A stretch of DNA of 64,000 nucleotides from Candidatus Omnitrophota bacterium (GTDB lineage Bacteria > Omnitrophota > Gorgyraeia > Duberdicusellales > 4484-171), in the NCBI GenBank assembly GCA_016935525.1, contig JAFGQU010000002.1:98560-162559 (forward strand), in the 5' to 3' direction. The notes below the pieces were generated by a model. It made no database searches and had not been told where the DNA came from. It saw only the letters and a program-made list of their open reading frames with translations. The translations under genes were made by a program, and so were the position numbers. Positions 2,372 through 29,801 of this stretch are shown here, in pieces; the stretch's first letter is position 1, and each line of letters begins with the position of its first letter.

Positions 2372-2383
2372 TATTTTACTTAT

Positions 2384-4694: not shown

Positions 4695-4750
4695 TATCTT
4701 TTCTTCACACTAAAACGCGCCGACGCGATTCGATACCCCACGGAACTATC

Positions 4751-7598: not shown

Positions 7599-8369
7599 TC
7601 ATGGGTACAAAGTATAGACAATTCTATCGACCGGATGATCTTCTCCGTCATACGCCTCAAAATGAGGGTTTTTATAAAAAAAAGCGTTCTTTCGAATAAA
7701 AATAGGGGTTTCGATATTTTTTATAGCTATGACGATCTCTTCCGGTAAAGACGCCCCGCTCCCCGAAAAGATTTTAAATCTATCCCGGCCGCTAAACAGC
7801 GGATAGCGGGTAAGAGTAAGATACACATCCGGTACATGCAAGGAAAAAGAGAACGGCATCTCATCCAACTGTTCTTTAGCGACCCCCAAAGCGGTATTAC
7901 TCAATTCAATACGTTCAATATGCTGTTCTTTCATAAAGGCGGTAAAATATGTATTTACGGGAATCCGTTGCCATTTTTCGGAAATATTTTTTCCCGGCCG
8001 GCGATGGGTACCTAGCCTTGGATCCGACGGTTGGTGGGTTAAAAGCCGCCCTAAAGAAATTTTTACCCCGCTCTCCCGGCAGAGAGGGAGAAAACCCCAG
8101 TCGTTAAGCACGACTTCTAGGTCCAATCCTTGACAGCCCGATAACAACCGTACTATCCCTGCGTAGGCGTCAACACCTCTATCGGTAAGGAAAGGGGTCA
8201 CTAAGGTCATTCTCAATGCGTGTTGGCTGCAGAAATCCATCAACCGTTTCGTATCATCGACGGAAGGGATGTTTTCATTACAGAATTCATCGCCAAAATA
8301 AATCCGTTGATACCGGTCATCCCAAAGATCACATTGATCGATATGTTGTATATTTAACGCATATTCCAT
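7599..8369 (-). CDS. U32-family protein, short UbiV-like subunit
   Basis: 'RIYFGDEFCNEN' resembles the UbiV N-terminal 'IYLGEAVCSKR' region. It lies immediately downstream (minus-strand sense) of a canonical U32 gene, as in the ubiU-ubiV pair. Start moved to the internal Met (MEYALN) to avoid overlap. Confidence 0.45.
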   Translation of the reverse strand: MEYALNIQHIDQCDLWDDRYQRIYFGDEFCNENIPSVDDTKRLMDFCSQHALRMTLVTPFLTDRGVDAYAGIVRLLSGCQGLDLEVVLNDWGFLPLCRESGVKISLGRLLTHQPSDPRLGTHRRPGKNISEKWQRIPVNTYFTAFMKEQHIERIELSNTALGVAKEQLDEMPFSFSLHVPDVYLTLTRYPLFSGRDRFKIFSGSGASLPEEIVIAIKNIETPIFIRKNAFFYKNPHFEAYDGEDHPVDRIVYTLYP

Positions 8370-8386
8370 AATAAAAACATCATGAT

Positions 8387-11166: not shown

Positions 11167-11290
11167 GGGCCCGAGACGATGATATCCTCTTTTTGGAGAG
11201 GCGGAATTGTTTTCCGCGTCTCCTGTTCTACACGGAAATTCTCATGTCTATGTATTGCGATATGCCCTTTCTTTCATTCTCTACACATTA

Positions 11291-12358
11291 ATGGATATCA
11301 ATATATACCCAACTATCCTGGCTATCGGCGAAATGAGTATCTTCGCCCTGCTGATTTTTCATTGTTGGTCACTAAGAGGGAAACGTATTACTTTTACCTT
11401 TTTTATCTTTTCTTTTATCTGCATGGCCTGGAAAGTGATCGGGGTCACGCCTAAACGTCCCCCGAATATCCCTCAGATGGCTTCTCATCATTATCAATTA
11501 CTCTTTTTCCCCCAACAGGCATCTCTTTTAGGGGAATTCATTGCCATCGTGGGGTGGATAATCGTATTTTATTTAAGTTGGCGGTTGGCGGAAAAAATCA
11601 TAGAAAACATTCCCTATTACAAAAACCGGATATTCCCGGTATTATTTTTCAGCGGTCTGGCCGCCATAGGATTCTCTTATGCAATTGAAGCAACCGCTAT
11701 TGCGGCCAAATGGTGGGCCTGGAAATATGAATACAAAGAAATCGCGGCCAGCTCGTTTTTGGTGGGGACGGTACCCTTCTATGCGTTAACCGCATGGTTT
11801 GATACTACCGTGCATTTGTTAGCGGCATATTTTCTTATCGAATGCACCCGATTCAGAAAATATTGGTGGAAGTTCATTTTTCTGTTCATCCCCCAATGTA
11901 GTTACCGATTCGAAATCATGGGATTAAGGGTATATGAAGAATTGGTTATGATAACTTTCCTATCCTTTTTCTCATTTTTCAATAAGTTGCCGTTTATGTA
12001 TGGGAACATAGATCTCGTATCGCCTGTAAGACGGGGAAAGAATATCGCCGGTTATCTACTGAAACGTGAACCCCACATGATACTCATTCTCACCGCAAGC
12101 ATTCTGGCGTATGTGCTGTTCATCGATATGTTCGTAATACAACAACCCGTACTGATTATTTCTAAATTGCCGCTGGGGATCATGCTCCTTCTCGCCGGTA
12201 AAAGGATAAAAACTGCTTACTTTCTTGCCCTCGGGATACTGTTTTTAGCTTTTTTTATCAAAAGCCGGCCGCTTCTGATCACTCTCTTCCCGGCGGCTAT
12301 CTTTCTTGTGTTTGAAGGAAAAGCCCGGTTTACTCAATCCCGCGGTACCAGGCAATAA
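11291..12358 (+). CDS. polytopic membrane protein, paralog 2 of the uncharacterised family
   Basis: Shares 'GWIIVFYLSWRLAEK', 'IEATAIAAKWWAWKY' and 'YFLIECTRFRKYWWKF' with the other two paralogs. Start set at MDINIY to match the paralog N-termini; the track ORF starts at 11207. Confidence 0.5.
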   Translation: MDINIYPTILAIGEMSIFALLIFHCWSLRGKRITFTFFIFSFICMAWKVIGVTPKRPPNIPQMASHHYQLLFFPQQASLLGEFIAIVGWIIVFYLSWRLAEKIIENIPYYKNRIFPVLFFSGLAAIGFSYAIEATAIAAKWWAWKYEYKEIAASSFLVGTVPFYALTAWFDTTVHLLAAYFLIECTRFRKYWWKFIFLFIPQCSYRFEIMGLRVYEELVMITFLSFFSFFNKLPFMYGNIDLVSPVRRGKNIAGYLLKREPHMILILTASILAYVLFIDMFVIQQPVLIISKLPLGIMLLLAGKRIKTAYFLALGILFLAFFIKSRPLLITLFPAAIFLVFEGKARFTQSRGTRQ

Positions 12359-13518
12359 AAGCTAATGGTTGTTTCCCTCCCCTGATTTTTTGGAATATCT
12401 TCATGAAAAAAGCTCAACCCCACAGATTTTGGGCGGGGACTTAATAGATAAAAACTGGCAGCGATCATACACAACGCGCCTATGATATATCCCGCTTTGG
12501 GAGGAAACAGATTGAACCGTATTGGTCCGGACCGGTCCCGGGAGAGAGACGACCGGATATATAACCAGTCCAGCGCATATAAGAGAGAAACGAACAGGAC
12601 CACTACCAAGCCGGGAACAGCCGGCTTACCGAAAAATCCGGCCAAAAGGCCGGCCAACGCCAGCGGGATGACAACAGGGATCCTGCCGATAGTCAGAAGG
12701 ATAATAAAAATGAAAGGTAATTTTGAAAAAATCAATTGCGGTTCTCTGACCACGCACAGATCAACCGCCGTAAAAACCATCACGGTACCGACCGCAAGGA
12801 AAGAAGGCGCCATTTTTAAAAAGCTATTGGCAGATTCTTTTGTTCGCGAAGGCCGGTATACTAATTTTAAATGAGAAAAAAAAGCCAAAACTATCACGCC
12901 ATCAAAAACGATGAATCTGATCAAAGCGAATTCCCGGGAAAAATATATCCACATGTAGCTGGCGGGAATAAGAAAAAACAGCGATTTCCACACATTGTCC
13001 TTGAACGAAGAACTTTCGATTAAAAAGAAAGGCAGCATAAAAAAGATATAAAATTCTATCCATCCGATAACCGCGCCGTAATTATATCCGGCCACAAAAA
13101 ACGATGAAAATTCCGAAGAAACCGCCTGCCATACCCACCATCCGGCACTGATACCGGTAGCTTCAAAGGCATAGGATATCGTCCCGGCAATGAATAACGA
13201 AAGGAATAAGGTGCTGAACAATCTCTCTCTAAAAACCCGGGTCCTCCCGAGTATTAATTCGGAAAGATACCAACTCATATAGAAAGTGAATATCCATCCT
13301 AAAATAACCGCACATATGACGAGAACGGTTGAAACCCCTTCGACGGTAAACCGGTAAGGCGCGACCGGAGAAAACGGCAACGTACTTTCTCTACGGAATC
13401 CCCAGAGTAACATAAAAAGGAAAAAGTGGAAGGTGATCCTCGCTCCTTTAGTCGATGAGGAATGGAATATGAGCACTATAACGCTCACGATGGCTGAAAT
13501 CAAAAGGAAATGAAACAT
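12334..13518 (-). CDS. polytopic membrane protein, paralog 3 of the uncharacterised family
   Basis: Shares 'GWIFTFYMSWYLSE', 'FEATGISAGWWVWQ' and 'FFLIESSSFKDNVWK'. Convergent 3'-end overlap of 25 nt with paralog 2. Confidence 0.5.
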   Translation of the reverse strand: MFHFLLISAIVSVIVLIFHSSSTKGARITFHFFLFMLLWGFRRESTLPFSPVAPYRFTVEGVSTVLVICAVILGWIFTFYMSWYLSELILGRTRVFRERLFSTLFLSLFIAGTISYAFEATGISAGWWVWQAVSSEFSSFFVAGYNYGAVIGWIEFYIFFMLPFFLIESSSFKDNVWKSLFFLIPASYMWIYFSREFALIRFIVFDGVIVLAFFSHLKLVYRPSRTKESANSFLKMAPSFLAVGTVMVFTAVDLCVVREPQLIFSKLPFIFIILLTIGRIPVVIPLALAGLLAGFFGKPAVPGLVVVLFVSLLYALDWLYIRSSLSRDRSGPIRFNLFPPKAGYIIGALCMIAASFYLLSPRPKSVGLSFFHEDIPKNQGRETTISFYCLVPRD

Positions 13519-13547: not shown

Positions 13548-14273
13548 TTATTCGATAATCATATCAATATCCGTGAGATCACTATCTCCTATATGTAACG
13601 GATTGTCCTTATAAGAAACCCGGCGGCAGCGCGGATCGTTCCCGCTGCTTGCTCCCGGGGGCACGGTTACCGCCATCAGACATACGTCGCCTACCCCTTG
13701 GGGAACACTAATAGTATACGGCCCGGGAGCCGAAAGAACAATATTGGCGATATCAGGAGGCAACCGGACCTTATGATACCGTTCGACTTCATATACTCCC
13801 ACCTCCACCCTTCCGCCAGTGAACTGAGCGTCATAGACCTGACCGGATATCGTCACCGTCGGGCCGGAATATCGTTCCATCACCAAACGGTTCGCGCGTA
13901 AAGGGATCGTATAATGAGATATATTTTCCTCACCGATAACGATAGGATCGGAGATAAAATACGCAAATGAATATCGCTTCTGGGGAGTGTCGCCGCGGTT
14001 ACGGGAAAGAAGATATATCGGCCCGGAATTCTTAGGGATCTTCAGTGTATACCGGCCGGGGCGGTTTAAATATACTATGCCTTGAGCGGCAGGATTTCCA
14101 TGTTGCAGTTTCTTCGACCATAACACCTCGATATCGCCCTTTTCGAACTCATCATAGACGACTTCCCCTTCAATGACTATATACGACCGTTGTTGATGCC
14201 AGATCTTAATACAAAGAGCCCCTACCACAATACCGATAATAATACCTGCCAATATTTTCCGGACCATGTTCAC
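13548..14273 (-). CDS. membrane-anchored exported protein of unknown function (two beta-rich repeats)
   Basis: N-terminal TM anchor 'ILAGIIIGIVVGALCIKIW'. Internal repeat 'GRYTLKIPKNSGPIYLL' / 'GPYTISVPQGVGDVCLM'. No recognisable catalytic motif. Confidence 0.4.
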   Translation of the reverse strand: MNMVRKILAGIIIGIVVGALCIKIWHQQRSYIVIEGEVVYDEFEKGDIEVLWSKKLQHGNPAAQGIVYLNRPGRYTLKIPKNSGPIYLLSRNRGDTPQKRYSFAYFISDPIVIGEENISHYTIPLRANRLVMERYSGPTVTISGQVYDAQFTGGRVEVGVYEVERYHKVRLPPDIANIVLSAPGPYTISVPQGVGDVCLMAVTVPPGASSGNDPRCRRVSYKDNPLHIGDSDLTDIDMIIE

Positions 14274-15808
14274 CGCTCTTTTATTCTACAATAATATGTC
14301 TCAACGCCGGGTATCTTTTTATCCTGAAAAACTATTTCCTGTTCTCTCAACCATTCCCGTAGCTGCGAGGAAAGATAAGGAACTCCTTCCCAATGAGAAC
14401 ATACGACCCACGCGCCGCGGGCTGAGGAAGCGATCCGATGGATATCGGCTATTTCAAAACCATAGGTACCCTGCAACGCGGAAAAAGAACCATCGTCGGG
14501 AAAATCTGCAGGGTCGATAATTAAATAAATATACTGTCGTAACCGCTGAGGGAAATAATACTGAAATGACGGCCAAATATTCTGAGTCGAGAGGACGATG
14601 ATATCGCCTTCCTTGTATCGTGAGACGATCGACCGGGCGATCTGACGCAGCGGCTTCCGGGGAAATACACTGACGGTCCTGCGAAAATTTTTTTCATCGT
14701 AATAATTCCCTAACGTAAGAACCGTCACCGATAGAAAAAGCGCTCCCATCAGTACCGCAAGGTATTTATATTTAAAAAGCCGTTCCCACCCCAGCACGAG
14801 CACGAGATAGTAACACGGCGACAACGCGATCAACGTACGGGTCAAAAGTATCGGTTTTGCTGAATAAGAGAAAATAATTATAAGCGCCAGAGGAGCCCAT
14901 AGGTAGCTCGCGATGAAACTCCTTTGGCTGAAAGAGTCGTCCTGCCCGGTCTTTCCGGAAACAATGGGATAAAATAGTATCGCCCACAGTAATCCTCCCG
15001 CAGTGATCAGCAATAATAACCATCCGTTGATATTGGCAGTATAATATCCGAACAGGAACTGTTCAAATACCTCAATAAGCCTCTGGATTGAGACCGGAGG
15101 GATCCAAAAATCGTTTCGTATACTCCCCAGATGAGCAAAAAACTTAGCCCCCCAGGGAATGAACAATAAGATGAGTATGCCCTGAGCTGACAGCCAGGAC
15201 GGTATTAATTCCTTATATCTCCTCCAATTGAAAAACAAAAATACATTATGGGAAAGAATAATAAGAAAAGCAAAATAATGAGTGTAAAGAGAAAGGGCAG
15301 TAACAAAGACCGTGATTCCCAGTATTCTACCGTCTCGTGTTTTTAAAAATACCTGAAAAAAATATATCGAACCGAGAGACAATAAAAGAAGAAGAGAATA
15401 CATCCGGATCTCCTGGGCATAATGTATCTGAAAAGGAGAAACCGCGATAAAAAATGCACCGAGCAACGCTATTTTTTTAGAAAAGATCAGTTCAGCGAGT
15501 TTATACAGTAACCAGATGCTGATAATACTGAATACTACCGACGGGATTCTCAGAAAGGCGTCACTTGACCCCAGATGTTTCCACCAATACATGAGAAGCC
15601 GATAGAGCGGAGGATGTGTCCCGACGCTAAAGGTGGTAAAAATACTTTTTAATCCCTGTTCAGCCTGTAATAATGTCTGCGCTTCATCGAACCATACCGA
15701 TTTCACATCCAAACGGAAAAAACGCAACATCGCTCCTACTCCCAGCACACAGATAAGGCCGCTATATCCGCGGGATATCTTTGCGATGAGCTGCGAAATT
15801 ATCGGCAT
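14270..15808 (-). CDS. GT-C fold membrane glycosyltransferase, ArnT/PMT (GT39/GT83)-like
   Basis: 'VWFDEAQT' DE-motif loop after TM1, 'THPPLYRLL', and 'RIPSVVFSIISIWLLYKLAELIF'. Polytopic. Confidence 0.6.
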   Translation of the reverse strand: MPIISQLIAKISRGYSGLICVLGVGAMLRFFRLDVKSVWFDEAQTLLQAEQGLKSIFTTFSVGTHPPLYRLLMYWWKHLGSSDAFLRIPSVVFSIISIWLLYKLAELIFSKKIALLGAFFIAVSPFQIHYAQEIRMYSLLLLLSLGSIYFFQVFLKTRDGRILGITVFVTALSLYTHYFAFLIILSHNVFLFFNWRRYKELIPSWLSAQGILILLFIPWGAKFFAHLGSIRNDFWIPPVSIQRLIEVFEQFLFGYYTANINGWLLLLITAGGLLWAILFYPIVSGKTGQDDSFSQRSFIASYLWAPLALIIIFSYSAKPILLTRTLIALSPCYYLVLVLGWERLFKYKYLAVLMGALFLSVTVLTLGNYYDEKNFRRTVSVFPRKPLRQIARSIVSRYKEGDIIVLSTQNIWPSFQYYFPQRLRQYIYLIIDPADFPDDGSFSALQGTYGFEIADIHRIASSARGAWVVCSHWEGVPYLSSQLREWLREQEIVFQDKKIPGVETYYCRIKER

Positions 15809-17227
15809 TTAATTCGTCCCTCTTGCGCATTCTTTCAATACACTCAATCCGGCGTGCCAGTAGTGGACGATCTGGCGGATATTCCGGACGCCACCGATGA
15901 TATTCACCATTCGTCGAGGATAAAGATAAAAACTAAGGTTTGCTTTCTTTATACATTCCGTGACCTTTTCTGAGCCGAGTTCAGTTTCGACATAAGGCGG
16001 GTCTCTCCTTATAGTATTACCCCGGATATATTCCCGCCAGTAATCGAACCGGTTTTTGGCCAGATACTGTTCATAAAGCGGGGTCGCCTGGATTATGGTC
16101 AACTTGGAAAATTGGGCGAAATCCAATTGTGATTTTTGCGCAAAACGTAACGTAGATCGGATCGTATGAAGCGTCTCCCCGGGAGCGCCTAACATAAAAA
16201 AACCAAAAGGCACTATTCGGTATTTCTTAGTCATCTCGATTTTCCTATTCATCTGCTCGATCGATATCGACGGCCTGTTGAGGTTTTTCTGTATCATCGG
16301 ATCGGCCGATTCGATCCCGTACATGAGCATCCGGCATCCGCTTTGAGCCATTTCTTTCAGTAATTCTTCATCGACCAGGTGGATACGGGTCCGGGCCATC
16401 CAGCTTAAAGAAAGCCGGTTCCTCCGTATCCTTTGGCATAGATCGATCGTTCTTTGCCGGTCGAGAGTAAATACTGTATCATAAAAATCCACATCCCGGA
16501 CGGAAAATCGATCATAACATTCTTTAAGTTCTTCGATCACATCATCGATATCTCTTATCTGTAAAGGATCGGGCCGGGAACAATATGTACATTCGAACGG
16601 GCATCCTTTCATGGTAACTACGGCGGTAAAATTTTTTCTTTGAGAGAACGAAGAAAAATATCTGCCATTAGGAAGCAGTTCCCTGGCCGGATGAGGCATC
16701 TTAAGAAAACTGTCCTGCTGATCCTCGCGGGGATTCACATAGAGCACATCGTCTTTACGGAAACAAAGGCCGCTCACGCTATTAAGATCTCCGCTATTGC
16801 CTAACACCGTTAAGAATTCCGGTAACGCGGAAAGCCCCGATCCCTGCAACGCGTAATCGATCTCGGGATGAGCCATGACTTCATGAGGATATATACTCAC
16901 CAGCGCGCCGCCGATGATTACCGGCAAAGAGACAATTTCTTTTATCTTTTTGATCCAAGCCCGCACATTATGAAAAGTAGCGGTAGTGACCGTAAATCCG
17001 AGGATATCGGGGTCGCTCTTTCTTATTTCTTTTATGACTTCGGCAAAAGACAGCCTCAATATATTCGCGTCAATAATATGTACCTGGTGTCCGGTCTTTT
17101 TAAGGATTGCCGCAAGATACGCGAGAGTTAACGGCGGATATCCGCGCATGTTTTCTTCATATCCGCCGATCTCAAACAGATTGTGCGCGGAAATAGTACT
17201 GTGCGGATATAGTAAGGAAACTCTCAT
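15809..17227 (-). CDS. B12-binding radical SAM protein (class B radical SAM, methyltransferase-like)
   Basis: N-terminal cobalamin-binding Rossmann region ('DILGFTVTTATF'). Radical SAM motif 'KGCPFECTYCS' (CxxxCxxC). Confidence 0.7.
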   Translation of the reverse strand: MRVSLLYPHSTISAHNLFEIGGYEENMRGYPPLTLAYLAAILKKTGHQVHIIDANILRLSFAEVIKEIRKSDPDILGFTVTTATFHNVRAWIKKIKEIVSLPVIIGGALVSIYPHEVMAHPEIDYALQGSGLSALPEFLTVLGNSGDLNSVSGLCFRKDDVLYVNPREDQQDSFLKMPHPARELLPNGRYFSSFSQRKNFTAVVTMKGCPFECTYCSRPDPLQIRDIDDVIEELKECYDRFSVRDVDFYDTVFTLDRQRTIDLCQRIRRNRLSLSWMARTRIHLVDEELLKEMAQSGCRMLMYGIESADPMIQKNLNRPSISIEQMNRKIEMTKKYRIVPFGFFMLGAPGETLHTIRSTLRFAQKSQLDFAQFSKLTIIQATPLYEQYLAKNRFDYWREYIRGNTIRRDPPYVETELGSEKVTECIKKANLSFYLYPRRMVNIIGGVRNIRQIVHYWHAGLSVLKECARGTN

Positions 17228-17293
17228 CTGGCAAGGTTACGTTGAGCCGATCTTTCTTGAAAAAAATCTATCATTTTTTGCCCGAAGGCACCG

Positions 17294-18718
17294 TCAGTTC
17301 TTACAAGTGACATGCTTCCATATATCCAAAGCGAAGGAAGCTTTCTGAACCATGCTTTTCAAAGAAAAAGCATCTCCCAGGTGCCGCATGATATAAAGGG
17401 GACGGAAATAAAAAGATTTGTAGGCATATTTTAATAATCCATTCAATTCCTGCTCGCTCAGATCCCCTGTCCAAAAAGGCAATTTAAAACCCGCCGTCGG
17501 GTGCTGGGCATAGGTTTTCCAACAATCTCCATAGATACCCTGTTCTAATCCCCTGGTGTACAACTCTGTTCCCGGAAAAGGAGCGACGATGGCAAACATC
17601 GCGTAATTCGGATCGAGTTCAATCGCGAATCGGATCGTGTTCATAATATCTTCTTTTGTCTCAGTCGGCGCACCGATCAAAAAATATAAAAGCATCTGTA
17701 TACCCGCCTCTTTTGTATCAGCAACAACTCTTCGGGCCTGTTCAACGGTAATCCCTTTTTTAAGCACTTTTAACATCCGGTCGGTACCGGCTTCAATACC
17801 GTACTGGATACGGGTACACCCGGCCGCGTTTAATCGTTCCAGCATTTTCCGATTCATCAGATCTACCCGAGCCCGGATATTCCATTTAAAATCCAATCGG
17901 GCAGCGATAATCCGGTCACATATCTCATATACCCGTTGTTCATCAAAATTAAAGAGATCATCGTAGAAAAATATCTCCTGAATGCCATTGGCCACACATT
18001 CGGAGATTTCACTCACGATATTCTCGGGGCTGCGGCTGCGGATCTTATACCCTTGATGTTGGCGAGAGCAAAAAATACACTGATAAGGACAGCCCCGGGA
18101 AGTAATCATTACCGTATAGGGGACATTTCTCCCCAGCAGGGTACGATAGCTGTACTTATCGACTAAATGCCTGGCCGGAAACGGCAATACATCCAAATTA
18201 TCCAGAAAAGGCCTCAGAGGAGTCTCAACGATCTTCCCCTCGTTCTTGTACAATATCCCTTTCACCGCAGAAAAATCACCGTCATGTTCAATTGTGTCGA
18301 CTAATTCGGCAAGGGTTATTTCGCCATCGCCGCGGACAACGAAATCGACCTCAGCAAACTCGATGGTTTGAAAAGGATAGACTGAACAATGGGGACCGCC
18401 GATACAGACTGTGATTTTCTCGTCTACCGCTTTTACTATTTTCGCAATTGCCAAAACATTTGCTAAATTAAACGTGACGGCATATATTCCTACGATACGC
18501 GGAGAAGTATCGCGAAGGTATTTTTCTATCGAGTCTATTCCTCCCGGTTCCCGCTGGCAATCAATAAGATTGACTTCATGAGAGCCGTAGCGAGCCATAT
18601 AGGAAGCAAGATACAATAATCCTAACGGGGGATATATCGAAAGTGACGCCGCAATGTTTTCCAGTAATCCCCTGCTGGTGACCATATTATTCGCAGGATT
18701 AATAAGGGTTATCTTCAT
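17294..18718 (-). CDS. B12-binding radical SAM protein
   Basis: 'RIVGIYAVTFNLANV' B12 domain. 'SRGCPYQCIFCS' CxxxCxxC. Confidence 0.7.
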   Translation of the reverse strand: MKITLINPANNMVTSRGLLENIAASLSIYPPLGLLYLASYMARYGSHEVNLIDCQREPGGIDSIEKYLRDTSPRIVGIYAVTFNLANVLAIAKIVKAVDEKITVCIGGPHCSVYPFQTIEFAEVDFVVRGDGEITLAELVDTIEHDGDFSAVKGILYKNEGKIVETPLRPFLDNLDVLPFPARHLVDKYSYRTLLGRNVPYTVMITSRGCPYQCIFCSRQHQGYKIRSRSPENIVSEISECVANGIQEIFFYDDLFNFDEQRVYEICDRIIAARLDFKWNIRARVDLMNRKMLERLNAAGCTRIQYGIEAGTDRMLKVLKKGITVEQARRVVADTKEAGIQMLLYFLIGAPTETKEDIMNTIRFAIELDPNYAMFAIVAPFPGTELYTRGLEQGIYGDCWKTYAQHPTAGFKLPFWTGDLSEQELNGLLKYAYKSFYFRPLYIMRHLGDAFSLKSMVQKASFALDIWKHVTCKN

Positions 18719-18759
18719 CGCCTTTATTATACCTTAATAACCTTACAATGAATCGATAT

Positions 18760-20280
18760 TTAACCGGGATGCCCCGCTTCTTTAGGACGAGTGGCGGTCT
18801 CTTTATAATGGTTCGTCCATTTTCCGATCGTATTACGGACTTTAAGTGACCATAATTTAACATAGTCGTTCATTAAAAAATAACCTCCATACACCATATC
18901 GGCAAGAGAGAAAGTCCTCCGCCACAATGTCCGCACGATAAACCAGGGCCGCAGATAAAAAGAAGCCATTGCTTTCCGCTGCAGAGCGCTCAATTCCGGT
19001 TTGGTCATCTTTTCGGGGCTATAGAGGATCTCTCCTTCGGTATCCGACCAATCATACCAGCTGGTATATCTATCGGGATCGTCTTCCCCTTTGGCCGGTT
19101 CCCATTGGTCTTCATAAAATTTCGACCCCGGGAAGGGAGTCGCGATATTGAATTTAACGATGTCCGGATTTACCTTTTTCGCGAATCGGATCGTTTCTTC
19201 GCAGGTAGAGGCATCTTCTTGCGGCAACCCCAATACAAATAATCCTAAAGAAAGGACTCCGGCTTTCCTGGTATATTCCATCGCCTGATACCCTTGCTCA
19301 AGGGTGGCGCATTTATTTACCGAATCAAGGATCCTCTGATTTCCCACCTCAAATCCATACATGATCAAATACAGGTTAGCTTCTTTCATCCTGCGCAGCA
19401 AATCGAGATTTACCTTATCTACTCTAGTCTCAGTAAACCAGCGTATCTTTTTATGCAGTTTGCGTTTTATAAACTCATCACAAAATGCTAAGCCGGATTC
19501 TATCGAAACCGGAAAATAGGCGTCGGTAAAACCGACATACTCTATTCCGAACCGCTCATAAAGATATTCTATCTCATCGATAACTTTATAGATATTCCGG
19601 CAGCGGAACGTATCGTACATCTTATCCTGGGAACAGAAAGTACAACGATAAGGACATCCCCGGGAAGCTTGTATCGGCAAAACAAGTTTATTATAAATAC
19701 CCAGCATAGGATATCTCCGATAGTACCGAAGCTGACACAGATCCCAGGCCGGAACAGGAAGCTGATCCAGATCCGCGATGCATCCCCGTCCTTTATTATG
19801 ATATACTCCCCCGGCGTACCGATAACTGATCCCCTCGATTTCATTCAACATCCGGTCATCCCGTAACGCGGTGAGCGCCTCCAGAAAACTCTCTTCGCCT
19901 TCGCCGCGGACAACAATATCCGCGACATCATCTTTCAGGAGTTCATCGGCAAAAAGGGTCGGATGGATATTACCCAGTATGCAGGTACATGATCTTTTCG
20001 CCGACCGGATCTGGCTTACTAAAGATATCACGTTGCCCATGACCGCGGTCAAACAGGAAATACCGACGACATCAAAATCCTCATCCACGATCATTCTGGC
20101 GATATCCTGGTTGCTTCGGCGGGTAGCATACTGATCTTCGATGGAAACCTCAAATCCCCCGTCCCGAGCGATAGCGGCCAAATAGGCTAGTCCTAACGGT
20201 GGCAGAGGGCTTACCGAACGATAATACCGCGCACTTTTTTGGGCTACATGCGATATGGGGTTAATTATTAAGATTTTCAT
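18760..20280 (-). CDS. B12-binding radical SAM protein
   Basis: 'DVVGISCLTAVMGNV' B12 domain. 'SRGCPYRCTFCS' CxxxCxxC. Confidence 0.7.
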   Translation of the reverse strand: MKILIINPISHVAQKSARYYRSVSPLPPLGLAYLAAIARDGGFEVSIEDQYATRRSNQDIARMIVDEDFDVVGISCLTAVMGNVISLVSQIRSAKRSCTCILGNIHPTLFADELLKDDVADIVVRGEGEESFLEALTALRDDRMLNEIEGISYRYAGGVYHNKGRGCIADLDQLPVPAWDLCQLRYYRRYPMLGIYNKLVLPIQASRGCPYRCTFCSQDKMYDTFRCRNIYKVIDEIEYLYERFGIEYVGFTDAYFPVSIESGLAFCDEFIKRKLHKKIRWFTETRVDKVNLDLLRRMKEANLYLIMYGFEVGNQRILDSVNKCATLEQGYQAMEYTRKAGVLSLGLFVLGLPQEDASTCEETIRFAKKVNPDIVKFNIATPFPGSKFYEDQWEPAKGEDDPDRYTSWYDWSDTEGEILYSPEKMTKPELSALQRKAMASFYLRPWFIVRTLWRRTFSLADMVYGGYFLMNDYVKLWSLKVRNTIGKWTNHYKETATRPKEAGHPG

Positions 20281-20300
20281 CGTTATGTTCCGAAAGTGAA

Positions 20301-20435
20301 TCTCCTCGGACTAAAAGTCCGAGGCTTCTTCACGTCCCGCCAGACTTCGTTCGGCGGGACATCCGCCTCAGGCGGATAATTTCTCTCATTCATCCCCGAT
20401 CTGAAGCCCGGGGACTTCTGCGTAGAAATTAAAAA
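20301..20435. repeat. ~135 nt four-hairpin intergenic repeat, copy 1 (REP-like or structured RNA element)
   Basis: Near-identical to 22993..23127. Hairpins CCTCGGAC-taaaa-GTCCGAGG, GTCCCGCC-(11 nt)-GGCGGGAC, CCGCCT-c-AGGCGG and CCCCG..CGGGG, with the shared tail TTCTGCGTAGAAATTAAAAA. Confidence 0.7.
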
Positions 20436-20542: not shown

Positions 20543-22105
20543 TTATTGCCGGTTTTTACGAGAGGCATATATCTTAATCATCGGATGGTACTGGGTGTTT
20601 ATAAAGGAACGGTGGACCGTAGGGATCCGGGGGATAAATTCCTTTATCAATAAAAAACGTTGATCGATATAATCATAAAAACCTTTTACATATCCCTGGG
20701 GATATCTCTCTTTCAAAATAATAAAATCAAATTCGTTATTCCTAAACAAATTCTCATATTGCCTCAGTTGTTCTTCTCCAATAACCTGGACATCATAAGG
20801 ATCTTCCCGACGAAAAACAAAAGACATTCCTCCGCCGTAGCTGTCGCTAAGAATACGGGCGCCATGGGGGACCTCGCGAGAAGCCCACTGCCTCACCATG
20901 ATCCGCGTATCTTTTTGATTCATCCAACGGACATAATATCCGGCCCAAAAAATACTATTGCCCAGAAAAACCGCGCAGGCCAATAAAAGGATCCAATTGA
21001 CACCTCTGTTGAGAAGAAATTTTTTCTTAAAAAAGCACATAACATCCATTAAGAACCACCCGGCAAACAACACCATCCACGGCAACAAAGGGAGCATATA
21101 TCGGGCGCGGTTCAGCATGAAAAATCCCATAATAAAATAATAAGCAAAAGGGAAAGAGAGCATAAAAATGTCTTTTTTTGAGTGACGCCAGACAGCTGCC
21201 GCCATACCGCCTATCGCGCATATGAAAACCGGGAATGTCAATATATCGATGAGTATCCCCGGATAATTCCACCACCCCCGTCGCAGGGGCACCAGATACG
21301 AAGGAAATCCCTGCAGGCCGGCATTCAACTGAAAGAACACATCATTTAAAAAACTTCTGATATCAAAAAACAGAGAAAAATTGCAAAGGAAAAAAATCCC
21401 GGCGGCGATACTACCTGAAAGCAAAAAGTATTTGCTGCTGGAAAATTTGTTTTTCGCCTTTAATAGACCCGCCGCATAAAGGGAAATACTCCCTATAAAA
21501 GCATGGTATTTTGCCGCTATTGCCAACCCCAGCCATAACCCGCTCAATACATAAGCCTTCCGCATCGGACTTTCTCCCAAAAAAATATCGCACATATAAT
21601 AAAAAGCGATAAGTAACAATACTACCATTACCATATCCGCTTTCATCTCGCAGGAATACATCACATGGAACGGGTTGACCGACAAAAACGCTGCGGCAAT
21701 CAATCCTACCTGTGGTGTAAATAATTTCTTTCCGATTCTATACACCATACCTATCTGAAAAATCGAACATACGGCTATCCATGCTCTTCCGCTTAAAATA
21801 ATGATGCTTTCCAGATCCCACGAGAACCATTGCGTAAGAAGCGGGAGCACGGTGATCTTAAGTACGCAAAATGTCCCCCATAACAGGTAGTAAAAAAGAT
21901 GGGGTATAATAAAATTGTGAGGGTTAAGATCGTTGAGATTCAATTCGAGAACGATTCCGGCAATAATGTTTTCATCGATTGCCGGCAACGCCGGGAGATG
22001 ATGCAGAAGGCATTGTATTCGTATCAGAGCGCCGATGAAAACGATCAGGGAGAGTATGTATCGCGGCCAGATTTCTGATAGAACGGTTATTTTCGGTTTA
22101 CACAC
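20543..22105 (-). CDS. GT-C fold membrane glycosyltransferase, ArnT/PMT_2-like
   Basis: Polytopic. 'GRAWIAVCSIFQIGMVYRIGKKLF...FLSVNPFHVMYS' fits the PMT_2 pattern. 'AIDEN' candidate DE loop. Confidence 0.5.
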   Translation of the reverse strand: MCKPKITVLSEIWPRYILSLIVFIGALIRIQCLLHHLPALPAIDENIIAGIVLELNLNDLNPHNFIIPHLFYYLLWGTFCVLKITVLPLLTQWFSWDLESIIILSGRAWIAVCSIFQIGMVYRIGKKLFTPQVGLIAAAFLSVNPFHVMYSCEMKADMVMVVLLLIAFYYMCDIFLGESPMRKAYVLSGLWLGLAIAAKYHAFIGSISLYAAGLLKAKNKFSSSKYFLLSGSIAAGIFFLCNFSLFFDIRSFLNDVFFQLNAGLQGFPSYLVPLRRGWWNYPGILIDILTFPVFICAIGGMAAAVWRHSKKDIFMLSFPFAYYFIMGFFMLNRARYMLPLLPWMVLFAGWFLMDVMCFFKKKFLLNRGVNWILLLACAVFLGNSIFWAGYYVRWMNQKDTRIMVRQWASREVPHGARILSDSYGGGMSFVFRREDPYDVQVIGEEQLRQYENLFRNNEFDFIILKERYPQGYVKGFYDYIDQRFLLIKEFIPRIPTVHRSFINTQYHPMIKIYASRKNRQ

Positions 22106-22850
22106 GTTTTTTTGATTTTAATCTGCCGGGGATAAAACGCGGGACACGAGACATATAATCGGCGTACGCCTGCGGGTATTCACCCAATAATTCTTTCTCT
22201 TCCTGTAACGCCAGCCGCCAGTAAGTAAACAATAGTATCGGCAATAACAATAACGTAGGGAACGTCGGCCAGGAAATACACCATCCCACGAGGATAAGGG
22301 AAATCCCTACATACTGGGGGTGGCGGATGAAACGATAGATACCGTCGGTAACCAGCCCTTCGCCCTTGTATATTTTACGCCAGGCCGCGATGATTAAAAA
22401 AATGCCGAATGCCACCGGAATCCTCCCCAATAAAAGGACCCAGCGGATAATCAGTTCCTGGTGGACAATGAACCGTCGGAAATCGGGGTATTGAAAAAAC
22501 GGGGAAAACATATACATCCCGAGCGCAAACCCGAACATCTCGGTAAATAAAGAGATCCAGAATGCCGTCAACATGCCTTTTGATTTCCAGCTTCTTATAC
22601 GGGTATGTTCCGGCCTCTTACGATAGAGCAAAAAAGGGAACAATAGACAAAAAATAAATACATTGAGGAAAAACATCCCTTTGGGACCGATATATTTTAA
22701 TAAAAAAGCGCTGGTGGGAGGAGGGGCCTTTAATCCCCATAACCCGAGGGCACTTCCACTGTATAAATAGAGAAACCCTGCCACATGGATGATACCGCAT
22801 AGTATCAATATCTTTTCATACAGCCGGCTTTTTACCTTCTCTTTACGCAT
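22098..22850 (-). CDS. isoprenylcysteine carboxyl methyltransferase (ICMT)/phospholipid methyltransferase family membrane protein
   Basis: 'RHPQYVGISLILVGWCI' followed by 'EEKELLGEYPQAYADYMSRVPRFIP' matches the ICMT/PEMT signature. Confidence 0.7.
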   Translation of the reverse strand: MRKEKVKSRLYEKILILCGIIHVAGFLYLYSGSALGLWGLKAPPPTSAFLLKYIGPKGMFFLNVFIFCLLFPFLLYRKRPEHTRIRSWKSKGMLTAFWISLFTEMFGFALGMYMFSPFFQYPDFRRFIVHQELIIRWVLLLGRIPVAFGIFLIIAAWRKIYKGEGLVTDGIYRFIRHPQYVGISLILVGWCISWPTFPTLLLLPILLFTYWRLALQEEKELLGEYPQAYADYMSRVPRFIPGRLKSKKRV

Positions 22851-22992
22851 TGTATTTTCTTGATAAGGAATACAAAATAACTCGTCATTATTCTATAAAA
22901 AACCTCATATACCGATTTATTTTAGCAAAAGGAAGTGCCAAAAACAATCTTTGCTCTCTGGCCAAAAGCAGTTACTCCTCACTTTAGTGAAT

Positions 22993-23127
22993 CGCCTCGG
23001 ACTAAAAGTCCGAGGCTTCTTCACGTCCCGCCGAACGAAGTTTGGCGGGACATCCGCCTGAGGCGGATAATTTCTCGCATTCATCCCCGGTCTAAAGCCC
23101 GGGGATTTCTGCGTAGAAATTAAAAAT
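22993..23127. repeat. ~135 nt four-hairpin intergenic repeat, copy 2
   Basis: Same order of the four hairpins and the same tail as copy 1. The loops of hairpins 2 and 3 are reverse-complemented relative to copy 1. Confidence 0.7.
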
Positions 23128-24301
23128 ACCGGTAAAGTTTTCCGGAAATCATTTCGTCCACACAACGTCTGTATTTCATTTTCAAATCGGCAAGACGTTC
23201 ATCATCAATTTCTCCGACTTTCGCCATAACCTCGAAACAATATCCGCAGTCCTCACACACCTGCTTGCTGCATTGTTTTTCGATGATGCCGGCAAGAAAA
23301 CCGTCGAGTTTTTTGTTCTCAATATACACCGGATTCCCGATGAGCCCTTTAAATTTTTTCAGCTTAAAGATATTTACCGATCCCGGCCGTAAAAAATATT
23401 TCAATGTACGAAATACATTCATTTTTTTGAAAAGAATGCTTTTTGACGGGTCGGGAAATAAATCCAACAAATTGCCGTCGTAAGTCCTCTTCACATACGC
23501 ATCCACAATGGATAGGATTGTAGAGGTAGTCATCCCCCTATCGATAATCTTGAACCAATCGATCCCGATTGTTTCGTAATACCCGGTATCTTCCGGACGG
23601 ATCCACGTGCTACGGATAAAATTGACCGGTTCGGCAAGCTGCTGATAACGGCACCTGATCCGGCAATAATCAATGACAAACCCCCGTGATACATGTCCAC
23701 TTTGAGAAGCATGGGAAGCTATATTCGCATGGTAGATATAGAAAGGGCAATTATGTAAACAGTTTACGTTTACAATAAGCTTCAACTCACAACGGACATC
23801 TTTACGGATCTGCTTAAGAGTCGAAAAATCTCTATTCAAATCGACATTAAAAAGAGTAATACGCCCAGCTCCCAGATCCTGCCAGTATTTCGCCCGGCGG
23901 GCGGTATTCACATAGGCTAAATCCGAAACGCATATGTTCAAGTGAGGGTATCTCTTTTTTATCAATTCTAAAAGATAGGGAGTTGCCACTGTCACCGAGT
24001 CGACTTTGATCCCGACCAACCAGTCAAGAAGACGGGTAATCCGTTTTTGCCCCCGACGGGTCCACTCCGCATTATCCAGACACGTGCTATTTAAAAGATA
24101 GTTAAACTCGATCCCGCAGCCGTGGGCCTGGGTGACGGCGTGAGCCAATCTTTTCTTTGATATGAAAGGCAACTGAAACGAATGTTTTCCTCCGCCGATA
24201 TCATCGGCAGGAAGTTTTCCATAAAGCTCTTTTACCTCAGAGAACTCCGCCACCGAAGCGATCAGGCTACAATCCCCATTAAAAGGAACCGTGAGTTTCA
24301 T
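23120..24301 (-). CDS. U32-family-like protein, divergent paralog
   Basis: 'FNYLLNSTCLDNAEW', 'GVDSVTVATPYLLELIKKRYP' and 'ELKLIVNVNCLHNCPF' parallel 3465..4694 and the canonical U32 gene. Start trimmed to MKLTVPFNGD; the track ORF starts with TTG at 24478. Confidence 0.5.
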   Translation of the reverse strand: MKLTVPFNGDCSLIASVAEFSEVKELYGKLPADDIGGGKHSFQLPFISKKRLAHAVTQAHGCGIEFNYLLNSTCLDNAEWTRRGQKRITRLLDWLVGIKVDSVTVATPYLLELIKKRYPHLNICVSDLAYVNTARRAKYWQDLGAGRITLFNVDLNRDFSTLKQIRKDVRCELKLIVNVNCLHNCPFYIYHANIASHASQSGHVSRGFVIDYCRIRCRYQQLAEPVNFIRSTWIRPEDTGYYETIGIDWFKIIDRGMTTSTILSIVDAYVKRTYDGNLLDLFPDPSKSILFKKMNVFRTLKYFLRPGSVNIFKLKKFKGLIGNPVYIENKKLDGFLAGIIEKQCSKQVCEDCGYCFEVMAKVGEIDDERLADLKMKYRRCVDEMISGKLYRYF

Positions 24302-25500
24302 CTTTTCTCTTTCCTGTAGGAGAACATATCCCCCGAGACAATACTTTGGAGATATCGAGCATAGCAGTCTAACATTTTTTTTCTCTGGGCCTGGTCTATA
24401 CGAAGCGCGCGCGCGATAAAATTTTGGCAGTCCGGACAATGTTCCCCGCTTAGCCCCTGAGGATGAACCATCAGCCAATGCGCTAAAAAGCCGTCTAATG
24501 ATGCATTGTCAACGGAAATACCGGAAGCATCCCGTAGCGACTGCATCGTGGCGAATTTAAATATATTCACCGCCTGAGGACGGAAAAAGTAACGGAATGT
24601 CTGCAAAAAAGGTGTTTTTCCTCGAGAAATTTTACCCTCAGAAGTACGTTCCTGAAAAAGGGCCAAGAGATTCCCTTCATACTGTCTTTGGGAATAACTT
24701 ACGAGCATTTTCTCTACATGGGACGTACTTAACGGACGATTGGCGAATTTAATGCTGTCGATCCCTATTTCTTCATAGTAACCCACATCTTCCGGCCGGA
24801 TCCAGGCCGAATAGATGAATTCACCGGGATCGCATAATTTTATATAGTTACAGCGCAAGAAACAATAATCGATCAGGAATCCTCCCGAAGGATGACCGGA
24901 TTGAGAGGCGTGAGCATGCGACACGGCATGGTATTGCCAGAAGGGGCATTCGGAAAGACAGGTAAGATTGGCGATAAGCTGGATTTCGCAGCGCAGCTGT
25001 TTTTTCAAAAGCCGTAAGAGAGGAAAATTGCGGATAACACTCGATGTCGTCGCCAAAGTTATTTTATCGGCACCTAACGATTCCCAATAACGGGCCCGCA
25101 CAAGAGAATCTACGCCGGCCATGGTCGATACCGACACCGTAAGCGTCGGATAATTATGTTTGATAAGTTCCAACAAATAAGGGATCGATACGGTTACCGA
25201 TTCGACGCCGCTATCAATAAGCCATTGCAGAAAATGCCGGATCTTCCGCTGGCCGGCGCGGGTGAATTCACGATTATCCAGACACACCGCATTGAGCAGA
25301 TAGTTAAACCGATATCCTTTATCCCGTACTTCTTTTACATGGCGTTTGAATCGGCCGCGCGAGATGTGCGGTAACATAAAAGACGGTCTCCCTCCGCCGA
25401 CCGGGTCATAGGCTAAAGCTCCGTACAATTCCTCTACGGTATCGTGAGGGATCGCGTCTAAAAGAGCGTTCTCCCAATTCGTAGGAATAACAAATTTCAT
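24298..25500 (-). CDS. U32-family-like protein, divergent paralog
   Basis: 'FNYLLNAVCLDNREF', 'GVESVTVSIPYLLELIKHNYP' and 'EIQLIANLTCLSECPF'. Start set to MKFVIPTNW, adjacent to the upstream stop. Confidence 0.5.
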   Translation of the reverse strand: MKFVIPTNWENALLDAIPHDTVEELYGALAYDPVGGGRPSFMLPHISRGRFKRHVKEVRDKGYRFNYLLNAVCLDNREFTRAGQRKIRHFLQWLIDSGVESVTVSIPYLLELIKHNYPTLTVSVSTMAGVDSLVRARYWESLGADKITLATTSSVIRNFPLLRLLKKQLRCEIQLIANLTCLSECPFWQYHAVSHAHASQSGHPSGGFLIDYCFLRCNYIKLCDPGEFIYSAWIRPEDVGYYEEIGIDSIKFANRPLSTSHVEKMLVSYSQRQYEGNLLALFQERTSEGKISRGKTPFLQTFRYFFRPQAVNIFKFATMQSLRDASGISVDNASLDGFLAHWLMVHPQGLSGEHCPDCQNFIARALRIDQAQRKKMLDCYARYLQSIVSGDMFSYRKEKR

Positions 25501-25504
25501 GTGT

Positions 25505-29799: not shown

Positions 29800-29801
29800 A
29801 A

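Follow-up and report, generated by a model that had tools for sequence, protein, structure and literature searches.

Introduction

ArnC-ArnD-ArnT and FlmF2-NaxD-FlmK are precedents for sugars that are modified on a lipid carrier before a GT-C glycosyltransferase transfers them. The known framework runs from a GT2 or UbiA donor synthase through cytoplasmic modification to GT-C transfer (PMC11127046). Described systems combine a GtrB/ArnC/Ppm1-type GT2 enzyme or a UbiA-family DPPR/PPPR synthase with modifiers such as ArnD, DprE1/E2 or the ORF13 epimerase, a flippase, and the GT-C enzyme itself (PMC11127046). The present analysis concerns a locus of a Candidatus Omnitrophota bacterium (assembly GCA_016935525.1) contained in a 64,000-nucleotide (nt) stretch of contig JAFGQU010000002.1 (positions 98,560 to 162,559, forward strand; hereafter the window, with coordinates counted from its first letter). 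In this locus five genes for B12-type radical S-adenosylmethionine (SAM) proteins, R1 to R5, lie among GT-C genes and four genes for U32-family Fe-S proteins, U32a to U32d. The reading favoured here, with confidence that is about evenly balanced, is that radical enzymes tailor polyprenyl-phosphate-linked sugars without oxygen and that GT-C enzymes then deliver these sugars to the cell surface.

With the three-component GT-C systems, including mycobacterial lipomannan, lipoarabinomannan and arabinan assembly (PMC11127046), the locus shares a UbiA-family gene, several PMT_2 GT-C genes and a deacetylase from the Pfam family of ArnD, as well as a small GT2 gene that weakly resembles ArnC, GtrB and DPMS. 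The shared logic would be that of a lipid-linked monosaccharide modified in the cytoplasm before it reaches the GT-C enzyme. The locus departs from these systems in its putative donor modifiers, which are arrays of B12-domain radical SAM proteins and U32 Fe-S proteins without precedent there, in a UbiA protein that is DGGGP-synthase- and ChlG-like and not DPPR-synthase-like, and in having no recognisable GtrA, SMR or MATE flippase.

C-methylation is the commonest class-B radical SAM activity, and moenomycin-type pathways combine a B12 radical SAM enzyme with a carbamoyltransferase, amidotransferases, a prenyl lipid and glycosyltransferases. HpnI-HpnK-HpnJ, and Cds for calditol, provide a precedent in which the substrate of a class-B radical SAM enzyme is a lipid-linked amino sugar that a GT2 has made and that has then been deacetylated (PMC13459092). 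The locus would resemble this arrangement if its class-B-type radical SAM proteins act on such a lipid-linked (amino)sugar, and HpnJ is the top model for R2 and R4. It is unlike it in that R2 and R4 reach only 30-40% of the HpnJ cut-off, shc, hpnH and hpnG are missing, and the deacetylase is of the PF01522 plus DUF3473 type. GenK, GenD1, MoeK5, Fom3, AprD4 and OxsB share the Rossmann, TIM-barrel and C-terminal-domain build, and GrsA/B, Hgm/Gmm, HpnP and HpnR, which act at the membrane, belong to the same superfamily and have the same three-domain build.

The U32 proteins UbiU/V, TrhP and RlhA hydroxylate without O2, using prephenate as oxygen donor, and most U32 subfamilies are uncharacterised (PMC10990095). 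U32a-d resemble UbiU/UbiV, TrhP and RlhA in scoring above the Pfam gathering score, in their conserved cysteine clusters and in forming tandem pairs, as UbiU/UbiV do; they differ in the cysteine spacing of U32a, U32c and U32d, in scores below the family cut-offs and in a glycan rather than quinone or RNA context. Full-text literature searches found no paper on a cassette of U32, B12-radical SAM and GT-C genes, nor on cobalamin radical SAMs in polysaccharide loci, and a recent survey of Omnitrophota genomes does not mention the cassette (10.64898/2026.06.07.730766).

Results

Five B12-type radical SAM genes form two groups

All five radical SAM genes lie on the minus strand. R1 (15809-17227; 472 amino acids, aa), R2 (17294-18718; 474 aa) and R3 (18760-20280; 506 aa, representing a U32-linked family) form a contiguous run, and R4 (32436-33875; 479 aa) and the highly conserved R5 (33895-35460; 521 aa) form a second group, with R4 placed between R5 and the small GT2 gene GT2a. 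The N-terminal ~140 residues of each protein match the B12-binding family PF02310 at 40-85 bits (R1 77.6, R2 75.0, R3 85.1, R4 70.2 and R5 40.4 bits; gathering score 32.1). This domain is accompanied by the Radical_SAM family PF04055 at 50-87 bits (67.8 bits in R1; gathering score 29.5), and a single CxxxCxxC motif per protein lies at residues 208-218 in 5/5 proteins (CPFECTYC at residue 209 in R1). A sequence-only reading of the window had proposed exactly this order of domain and motif for five genes and had named the absence of a B12-binding domain from profile searches as one finding that would speak against it; the domain is above gathering score in R1 to R5, and the proposal is borne out. 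Pairwise identity among the five is only 23-40%, with R2 and R4 at 40%, which indicates ancient paralogs and neither recent tandem duplicates nor a repeat or assembly artefact.

Within the first group, R3 and R2 are separated by 41 nt and R2 and R1 by 66 nt, in line with the 40-70 nt claimed earlier for this run, and R1 is followed with a spacer of 0 nt by the GT-C gene GTC1 (14270-15808). The placement of the run downstream of a GT-C gene also stands, since GTC2 (20543-22105) lies upstream of R3 across a gap of 262 nt, but the second GT-C gene directly after R1 had been missed. In the second group, R5 and R4 are spaced by 19 nt. Ahead of them lie a UbiA gene (36641-37507) and a further radical SAM gene (35457-36644), which share 4 nt at their junction; these are the two neighbours that the earlier reading had described.

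The AlphaFold2 model of R3 has a predicted local distance difference test score (pLDDT) of 90.4 and a predicted TM-score (pTM) of 0.87. Its best Foldseek matches are TsrM, AprD4, MgmA/QCMT, OxsB, CysS and TokK, with E values of 1e-25 to 1e-17 and TM-scores of 0.59-0.70. The predicted fold of R3 is thus the three-domain class-B radical SAM build of TsrM, TokK, OxsB and QCMT. R1 to R5 may use cobalamin.

R1 to R5 match no characterised family

All five proteins were scanned, and none reaches a curated NCBIfam cut-off. The BchE model (TIGR02026; cut-off 481) gives 132 bits for R1, 195 for R2, 216 for R3, 177 for R4 and 176 for R5, and the HpnJ model (TIGR03471; cut-off 577.6) gives 227 bits for R2, 178 for R4, 158 for R3, 129 for R1 and 107 for R5. 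BchE is the nominal top NCBIfam model for R1, R3 and R5, and HpnJ is the top model for R2 and R4. On the HpnR model (TIGR04367) the five proteins score 67-128 bits against a cut-off of 650, and no tetraether or hopanoid synthesis genes lie nearby. The AprD4 model (NF033070) gives 41-135 bits against 500, and the locus is a primary envelope locus of an anaerobe, not an actinomycete antibiotic cluster. From the antibiotic sugar radical SAMs in general it is set apart by five or more paralogs per locus and by the U32 partners. The models for PhpK, the 'ladderane' lipid family, QCMT, BzaD and methylases of ribosomally synthesised and post-translationally modified peptides (RiPPs) also leave R1 to R5 under cut-off; for R2, the RiPP methylase models ApyD and TIGR03975 give 133-165 bits. 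Scores on the class-B families of archaea (TIGR04190, TIGR04013 and TIGR04014) are far under cut-off. Membership of HpnJ, HpnR, BchE, AprD4, PhpK, 'ladderane' or QCMT is not supported at the 10-45% of the curated cut-offs that R1 to R5 attain.

The nearest solved sequences are similarly remote: AprD4 for R1 (88 bits) and R2 (122 bits), in the radical SAM domain only (PDB 6fd2), QCMT/MgmA for R3 (63 bits) and OxsB for R5 (44 bits). With all scores under cut-off and the solved relatives this distant, the names given automatically to relatives in databases ('anaerobic Mg-protoporphyrin IX monomethyl ester cyclase', 'YgiQ') are uninformative. By comparison with NCBIfam and the PDB, which left GrsA/B, Tes, Mss, Hgm, HpnP, GenK, Fom3 and MoeK5 outside, R1 to R5 are assigned to the class-B radical SAM superfamily and to no characterised family within it.

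Four U32 Fe-S proteins accompany the radical SAM genes

The neighbours listed by the sequence-only reading were incomplete: they lacked the four U32 Fe-S proteins and the GT2 protein resembling polyprenyl-phosphate sugar synthases, and they included one GT-C gene instead of three. The U32 genes all lie on the minus strand. U32a (3465-4694; 409 aa; Pfam U32 46.8 bits) belongs to the same subfamily as U32c (open reading frame, ORF, 23120-24478; Peptidase_U32 36.5 bits) and U32d (ORF 24298-25590; 37.4 bits), and U32b (8387-9409; 114.9 bits) is UbiU-like; the Peptidase_U32 gathering score is 22.4 bits. The mechanically called ORFs of U32c and U32d overlap their neighbours by 180 nt and 85 nt owing to upstream TTG starts. 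Orthologs are ~393-397 aa long, which favours ATG starts at 24301 for U32c and 25500 for U32d; these give the usual operon overlaps of 4-6 nt.

U32a, U32c and U32d share the pattern C-x9-C-x3-C-x27-C-x3-C together with C-terminal cysteine motifs, and their sole solved relative is the U32 domain of PDB 5d88. This subfamily is small and divergent, with 506 representative clusters at E <= 1e-30 among 1.84 billion proteins. None of U32a-d reaches the equivalog cut-offs of UbiU, UbiV or TrhP (TrhP 24-76 bits against 534); U32b scores 85 bits on UbiU against a cut-off of 440 and 76 bits on TrhP. U32b is always paired, in 9 loci, with a Pfam-less partner of ~270 aa, encoded in the window at 7599-8417 (minus strand). 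The partner could be a degenerate UbiV-like subunit, but homology to U32 receives an hhalign probability of 12%, and no Pfam match was found in 8 members.

Chorismate mutase produces prephenate. In one related locus (L092, 13454-13741), a gene for a 95-aa chorismate mutase (CM_2) lies between U32 genes beside an R5 ortholog. It was considered as a general partner of the U32 proteins and set aside, being found in L092 and in none of the other loci.

Related loci combine the same genes

A metagenome scan with an R3-family alignment returned 79 loci, and the 47 of at least 8 kb were examined for content; these contain an average of 3.2 B12-radical SAM genes per locus. The census compares 34 non-redundant loci that encode an R3 ortholog, defined by an identity of at least 44%, with 11 loci that encode more distant R3 relatives. 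The U32a/c/d subfamily is the most consistent neighbour of R3 orthologs, being directly adjacent in 20/34 loci; a GT-C gene is present in 24/34 and an R5-type gene in 18/34. U32 and GT-C genes were found in 0/11 of the loci with more distant relatives. In these R3-seeded loci, all four adjacencies counted exceed random gene order: B12-U32 (45 observed vs 23 expected), U32-U32 (16 vs 5), B12-B12 (49 vs 28) and B12-GT-C (24 vs 16).

One locus (L009) repeats window positions 269-26920 almost gene for gene. Its order is GT-C, U32a (57% identity) adjoining an R4 ortholog (50%), two GT-C genes, a B12-radical SAM gene, U32, U32c (55%) and R3 (57%), continuing with a 10-TM (transmembrane segment) protein (36%), R1 (49%), GTC1 (38%), membrane paralogs, U32b (41%) and its partner (35%), further membrane paralogs and GH44. 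R1 stands directly upstream of GTC1 in both the window and L009, and GTC1 orthologs in related loci are found downstream of R1 or near R5- or R3-type genes. Orthologs of R1, R3, R4 and R5 share single cassettes in other loci, which upholds the earlier view that the two gene groups belong together; since these cassettes combine both groups, the groups are parts of a single system, and its modules are arranged differently from genome to genome. Domain content, clustering, operon-like spacing, conserved synteny and co-occurrence are all directly observed.

Glycan genes also surround the relatives of R2, which number >5900 (45-48% identity for the closest). They lie in glycan loci of uncultured members of Omnitrophota, Spirochaetota, Patescibacteria and other groups, next to genes for GT2, GT4, Wzy, Wzx, Bac_transf, AsnB-like proteins and SAM methyltransferases. 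All contexts examined for relatives of R2, R3 and R5 are glycan loci, with GT2, GT4, Wzy, Wzx, Bac_transf, deacetylase or DUF2079 genes. Recurrent extra partners are SPASM/Fer4_12 radical SAMs lacking the B12 domain (13 loci), GDSL/SGNH proteins (11) and additional GT-Cs (8). The arrays can be large: L091 interleaves five B12-radical SAM genes with two GT-C genes, and L093 contains >10 radical SAM genes, three GT2 genes, a deacetylase, DUF2079 and a U32-R3-U32 block.

Two loci contain further gene sets. In L002, positions 1527-5216 encode a B12-radical SAM protein (465 aa), an ArnC/PgfS-like GT2, a SAM methyltransferase and a YdjC deacetylase, with no hopanoid context; the YdjC protein scores 190 bits on the HpnK model against a cut-off of 233. 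In L011, positions 1-3185 encode an MBOAT protein, a PP-binding carrier protein and an 812-aa radical SAM/AMP-binding fusion, beside five B12-radical SAM genes and two U32 genes; this set looks like a Dlt/AlgI-like O-acylation system.

R4 and R5 belong to a module with GT2a, UbiA and a variant radical SAM protein

R4 lies 24 nt upstream of GT2a (31599-32411, minus strand), which encodes a small GT2 protein with one C-terminal TM segment. Its best, partial NCBIfam matches are PpgS, PgfS, ArnC and AglJ, and its PDB matches, at 19-31 bits, are ArnC (three), DPMS or GtrB in 7/7 cases. The radical SAM gene ahead of R5 (35457-36644, minus strand) encodes a variant protein with a C-x12-C-x2-C motif that scores 223 bits on NCBIfam NF045502 ('variant_rSAM') against a cut-off of 125. 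The UbiA prenyltransferase gene (36641-37507, minus strand) scores 151 bits on Pfam UbiA, and the arrangement indicates that UbiA, the variant radical SAM gene and R5 are translationally coupled. The nearest solved structures to UbiA are DGGGP synthase 6m31 (83 bits) and chlorophyll synthase, and ChlG is its second-best NCBIfam match. A role as DPPR/PPPR synthase, of the Whitfield or mycobacterial type, was examined and dropped, because DGGGP and chlorophyll synthase are its nearest relatives and no match to DPPR synthase was obtained. The variant radical SAM protein has no significant solved relative, and it matches MqnE faintly (E = 0.04). Its C-terminus is strongly amphipathic and basic, like an in-plane membrane anchor, and the C-terminal tails of R1 to R5 are basic and aromatic.

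A scan of a genome collection with the variant radical SAM protein returned two loci only. L002 and L008 repeat UbiA (51% identity), the variant radical SAM gene (62-63%), R5 (74-75%) and GT2a (45-47%), and L008 further holds a carbamoyltransferase, a deacetylase, a GATase, a WbuX protein (78%) and a GTC1-like gene. The pair of UbiA and variant radical SAM is kept in L002, L007 and L008. R4 is missing from its position between R5 and GT2a in L002 and L008, and R4 orthologs (50%) are found in L009 and L014. UbiA, the variant radical SAM gene, R5 and GT2 form a conserved core. R5 itself recurs at 60-77% full-length identity in >100 clusters, mostly from Omnitrophota, and at 70-77% in many Omnitrophota MAGs; its neighbours are conserved at 45-63%, and the closest relatives of the other four paralogs stand at 45-58%. 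This far better conservation of R5 suggests that its role is a core step under strong constraint. A Fer4_12/SPASM radical SAM gene (~500 aa) replaces the variant radical SAM gene immediately ahead of R5 in L015, L092 and L093.

The genes lie within an envelope-glycan supercluster of ~42 kb

Domain assignments delimit positions 269-42618 (~42 kb) as one envelope-glycan supercluster, larger than had been reported from the sequence-only reading. Its three GT-C genes, all on the minus strand, encode GTC1 (512 aa, ~9 TM segments; PMT_2 59.6 bits), GTC2 (520 aa; 51.3 bits) and GTC3 (25505-26920; 471 aa; PMT_2 51.5 and PMT 44.6 bits). GT-C membership thus rests on three PMT_2 matches of 51-60 bits (gathering score 26.1) and on 6-9 predicted TM segments each. 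A sugar-tailoring set at 26880-31526 was identified with Pfam and NCBIfam and comprises a WbuX-like protein of the N-acetyl-sugar amidotransferase type (139 bits), a GATase, a polysaccharide deacetylase of family PF01522 with DUF3473 (plus strand; XrtA-system deacetylase 223 bits) and a NodU-type carbamoyltransferase (plus strand; 147 bits). Genes for cytoplasmic glycan assembly, assigned with Pfam, occupy 37795-42618 on the plus strand and encode a GT2 (GT2b), two GT4 proteins, an initiating transferase of the WecA/MraY family (WecA 57 bits) and a metallo-beta-lactamase-fold protein.

LmtA is a lipid A phosphate methyltransferase. It is the weak NCBIfam match of a PEMT/ICMT-type membrane methyltransferase gene (22098-22850, minus strand; 250 aa; PEMT 35.6 and ICMT 27.5 bits). 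Two Pfam-assigned minus-strand genes encode a GH44 hydrolase at the cluster edge (269-2371) and a 930-aa membrane SGNH/GDSL protein (4751-7543; GDSL_2). An orphan membrane paralog family is present in 3 copies, at 2384-3394 (minus), 11207-12358 (plus) and 12334-13518 (minus). Its members have 7-10 TM segments and a conserved E...GWWRW motif with no Pfam match even at E <= 1, and the family is multi-copy in L009 and L012 too. A 10-TM protein (9406-10950) and a single-TM protein (13548-14273), both Pfam-less, are conserved in related cassettes. The membrane paralogs and the protein at 9406-10950 have no match in Pfam, NCBIfam or the PDB, and the orphan polytopic paralogs are candidate flippases, polymerases or acyltransferases.

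The cluster is bounded by a housekeeping block at 42637-58000 with pyrF, pyrD/pyrK, a pabB-pabC fusion, fpg, carB, carA, pyrC and pyrB, together with a tRNA gene (54270-54341). Housekeeping genes, among them those of pyrimidine synthesis, make up the right-hand part of the window (42.6-64 kb). The G+C content of the block is slightly higher, at 0.46-0.48, compared with 0.43-0.46 in the cluster.

A promoter-like site and a repeat lie upstream of R3

The 262-nt gap upstream of R3 contains a promoter-like site of the sigma-70 type, TTGACA-16-TATAAT, at 20504-20477 on the minus strand, which matches 12/12 consensus positions and suggests that R3-R2-R1-GTC1 form a transcription unit of their own. 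A 136-nt repeat occupies the leaders of R3 (20295-20430) and of the ICMT-type gene (22986-23121), both on the minus strand, and the two copies are 91% identical. The element forms four GC-rich hairpins, and for the R3 leader as a whole (196 nt) the folding energy is -87 kcal/mol (z = -7.3). No Rfam match was found for the element at gathering score or at E <= 1, and the empty Rfam scan led to the rejection of a riboswitch, for cobalamin or another ligand, in the leaders. No copies were found in the other fetched loci. The element could represent a novel RNA, acting as leader or regulator, or else a small repeat.

Discussion

In the favoured reading, R1 to R5 would be cytoplasmic class-B radical SAM tailoring enzymes of one large O2-independent envelope glycan or glycoconjugate pathway. 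GT2a would load a sugar onto polyprenyl phosphate, and the WecA-family transferase, the GT4 proteins and GT2b would assemble a polyprenyl-diphosphate-linked oligosaccharide. At the cytoplasmic face, the deacetylase, the WbuX-type amidotransferase and the carbamoyltransferase would remodel lipid- or nucleotide-linked sugars. R1 to R5 and the variant radical SAM protein, joined in related loci by the SPASM radical SAMs, would carry out C-methylation or other radical rearrangements, for which ring contraction of the HpnJ/Cds type, deoxygenation of the AprD4 type and oxidation of the BchE type are possible reactions. The U32 Fe-S proteins would hydroxylate without O2, probably with prephenate-derived oxygen, as the chorismate mutase gene of L092 suggestively hints. 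The donors would then be flipped across the membrane, with the Pfam-less polytopic proteins as candidate flippases, and the three PMT_2 GT-Cs would pass the sugars to an extracytoplasmic acceptor, after which the SGNH and GH44 proteins could act on the polymer. The L002 triad of B12-radical SAM protein, ArnC-like GT2 and YdjC protein offers an analogy, since it appears to mirror HpnJ/HpnI/HpnK. The sequence-only reading had envisaged iterative C-methylation or the formation of rings and bridges; C-methylation stands as one of several possible chemistries but is not singled out. An envelope or sugar setting, as opposed to tetrapyrrole chemistry, is supported by the gene context.

Several points weigh against this reading, in which the substrate, each reaction and the use of cobalamin and prephenate are deduced from sequence. 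The resemblance of GT2a to polyprenyl-phosphate sugar synthases is carried by weak scores of 19-53 bits, and UbiA appears most similar to the O-prenylating DGGGP and chlorophyll synthases, which leaves its part in a sugar pathway unexplained. Pfam and NCBIfam detect no GtrA, SMR or MATE flippase in the cluster. AprD4 and ArsL possess a B12-like Rossmann domain yet bind no cobalamin (PMC12931638), so that cobalamin dependence of R1 to R5 is inferred rather than shown. Among the characterised enzymes compared by NCBIfam model, R1 to R5 have no apparent ortholog, and several reaction types may apply: R2 and R4 are nearest to HpnJ (ring contraction), R1 and R2 to AprD4 (deoxygenation), and R3 and R5 to BchE (anaerobic oxidation). 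The cysteine pattern of U32a, U32c and U32d is unlike the CX6CX15CX3C motif of the characterised U32 oxidases (PMC11574389), and the known U32 hydroxylases all work on aromatic or heteroaromatic rings, not on sugars (PMC10990095). The hint of prephenate use comes from a single locus, and the locus census and adjacency counts were seeded with R3 and are biased to that extent.

A different substrate is the main alternative to be weighed. The radical SAM and U32 enzymes might methylate, cyclise, bridge or hydroxylate the isoprenoid or alkyl chain of a membrane or anchor lipid that UbiA makes or attaches, by analogy with GrsA/B, Hgm/Gmm, HpnP/HpnR or ladderane-type enzymes; glycosylation of this lipid would fall to the GT-C and GT2 proteins. 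This reading, which is unlikely, draws on the similarity of UbiA to the ether-forming DGGGP synthase (83 bits) and to chlorophyll synthase, on the coupling and co-conservation of the variant radical SAM gene and R5 with UbiA, on the basic, aromatic tails of R1 to R5 and the anchor-like amphipathic C-terminus of the variant protein, and on the presence of an ICMT/LmtA-like lipid methyltransferase in the cluster. GrsA/B, Gmm and HpnP/R are class-B radical SAMs that act on isoprenoid lipids (PMC13459092), and homologs of Hbs and Mss occur in Omnitrophota (10.1101/2023.10.20.563219). However, neither UbiA nor the variant radical SAM gene lies within 10 kb of R3 orthologs in any of 47 loci (0/47), where GT-C, GT2, deacetylase, SGNH and GH44 genes recur. 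The window moreover contains no polyprenyl synthase, GGGP synthase, G1P dehydrogenase, fatty-acid or squalene genes and no shc or hpn genes, and the HpnR, 'ladderane', Ta0216 and MJ_1487 models score far below cut-off. A prenylated aromatic compound of the quinone type, with a ring prenylated by UbiA, hydroxylated by U32 proteins as by UbiU/V and methylated by the radical SAM or ICMT-type enzymes, is far less probable still. One UbiA, four U32 and methyltransferase-type enzymes do parallel O2-independent ubiquinone synthesis (PMC6747719; PMC10990095), and the aromatic nature of known U32 substrates, the best match of U32b to UbiU (85 bits) and the faint match of the variant radical SAM protein to MqnE (E = 0.04) fit the same picture. 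It is opposed by the UbiU, UbiV, TrhP, UbiA and MenA equivalog scores, which are far below cut-off, by the absence of UbiD/X, UbiE/G and Mqn genes from the cluster, by UbiA being unlinked to U32 or R3 in the 47 related loci, and by the dominance of GT-C and sugar enzymes; Omnitrophota are also reported to live by fermentation and to have incomplete electron transport (10.64898/2026.06.07.730766).

A secreted protein or peptide is a quite improbable substrate. It would be C-methylated by radical SAM enzymes, as by QCMT, Mmp10 or PoyC, hydroxylated by U32 proteins and O-glycosylated after export by the PMT-type enzymes. PMT/PMT_2 is indeed the protein O-mannosyltransferase family, and R2 reaches its 133-165 bits on RiPP methylase models. 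QCMT/MgmA, a protein methylase (PMC12931638), is the nearest solved sequence to R3, and Omnitrophota encode many giant surface proteins (10.64898/2026.06.07.730766). The cluster nevertheless lacks a precursor peptide, a leader protease and an export ABC transporter, and it holds many dedicated sugar-modifying genes; no RiPP or QCMT model reaches its cut-off. Short ORFs in the gaps occur only inside the repeated, structured RNA-like element, and no conserved small ORF stands beside R3 orthologs. A RiPP precursor was accordingly rejected, the gap ORFs being translations of the structured repeat and protease and transporter being absent. That the radical SAM proteins have no link to the envelope and serve instead in tetrapyrrole or cofactor chemistry, for instance as BchE-type cyclases, an outcome against which the sequence-only reading had warned, is almost certainly not the case. 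BchE is nominally the top match of R1, R3 and R5, the automatic names of relatives repeat it, and ChlG comes second for UbiA, but the scores of 132-216 bits against 481 and the lack of a photosynthesis context mark this as generic class-B similarity. No bch, chl or tetrapyrrole genes are present in the 64-kb window, the host phylum is non-phototrophic, and all contexts examined are glycan-related.

For the favoured reading of sugar tailoring on polyprenyl phosphate, the analysis defines compact gene sets: GT2a with R4/R5, the variant radical SAM gene and UbiA; R3 with a U32 pair; and R1 with GTC1. A bolder form of the reading, possible but doubtful, sees a 'radical glycan factory' shared across Omnitrophota and neighbouring candidate phyla. 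In it, divergent U32 hydroxylases, dependent on prephenate and acting on non-aromatic lipid-linked sugars, would work with B12-radical SAM arrays to yield C-branched, hydroxylated or carbacyclic surface sugars delivered by GT-C enzymes. If so, U32 oxidases would gain their first glycan role, and sugars would be diversified by a new O2-free route. If the function were ordinary sugar C-methylation, the result would still be a useful annotation for a very common metagenomic unknown. If the sugar-tailoring reading is true, functions would be gained for R3- and R5-type B12-radical SAMs, a U32 subfamily, the NF045502 variant radical SAM and several Pfam-less membrane proteins. The substrates of prephenate-dependent hydroxylases would extend past quinones and RNA, and strict anaerobes, mostly uncultured, would diversify their surface sugars by radical and Fe-S chemistry and not by O2-dependent enzymes.

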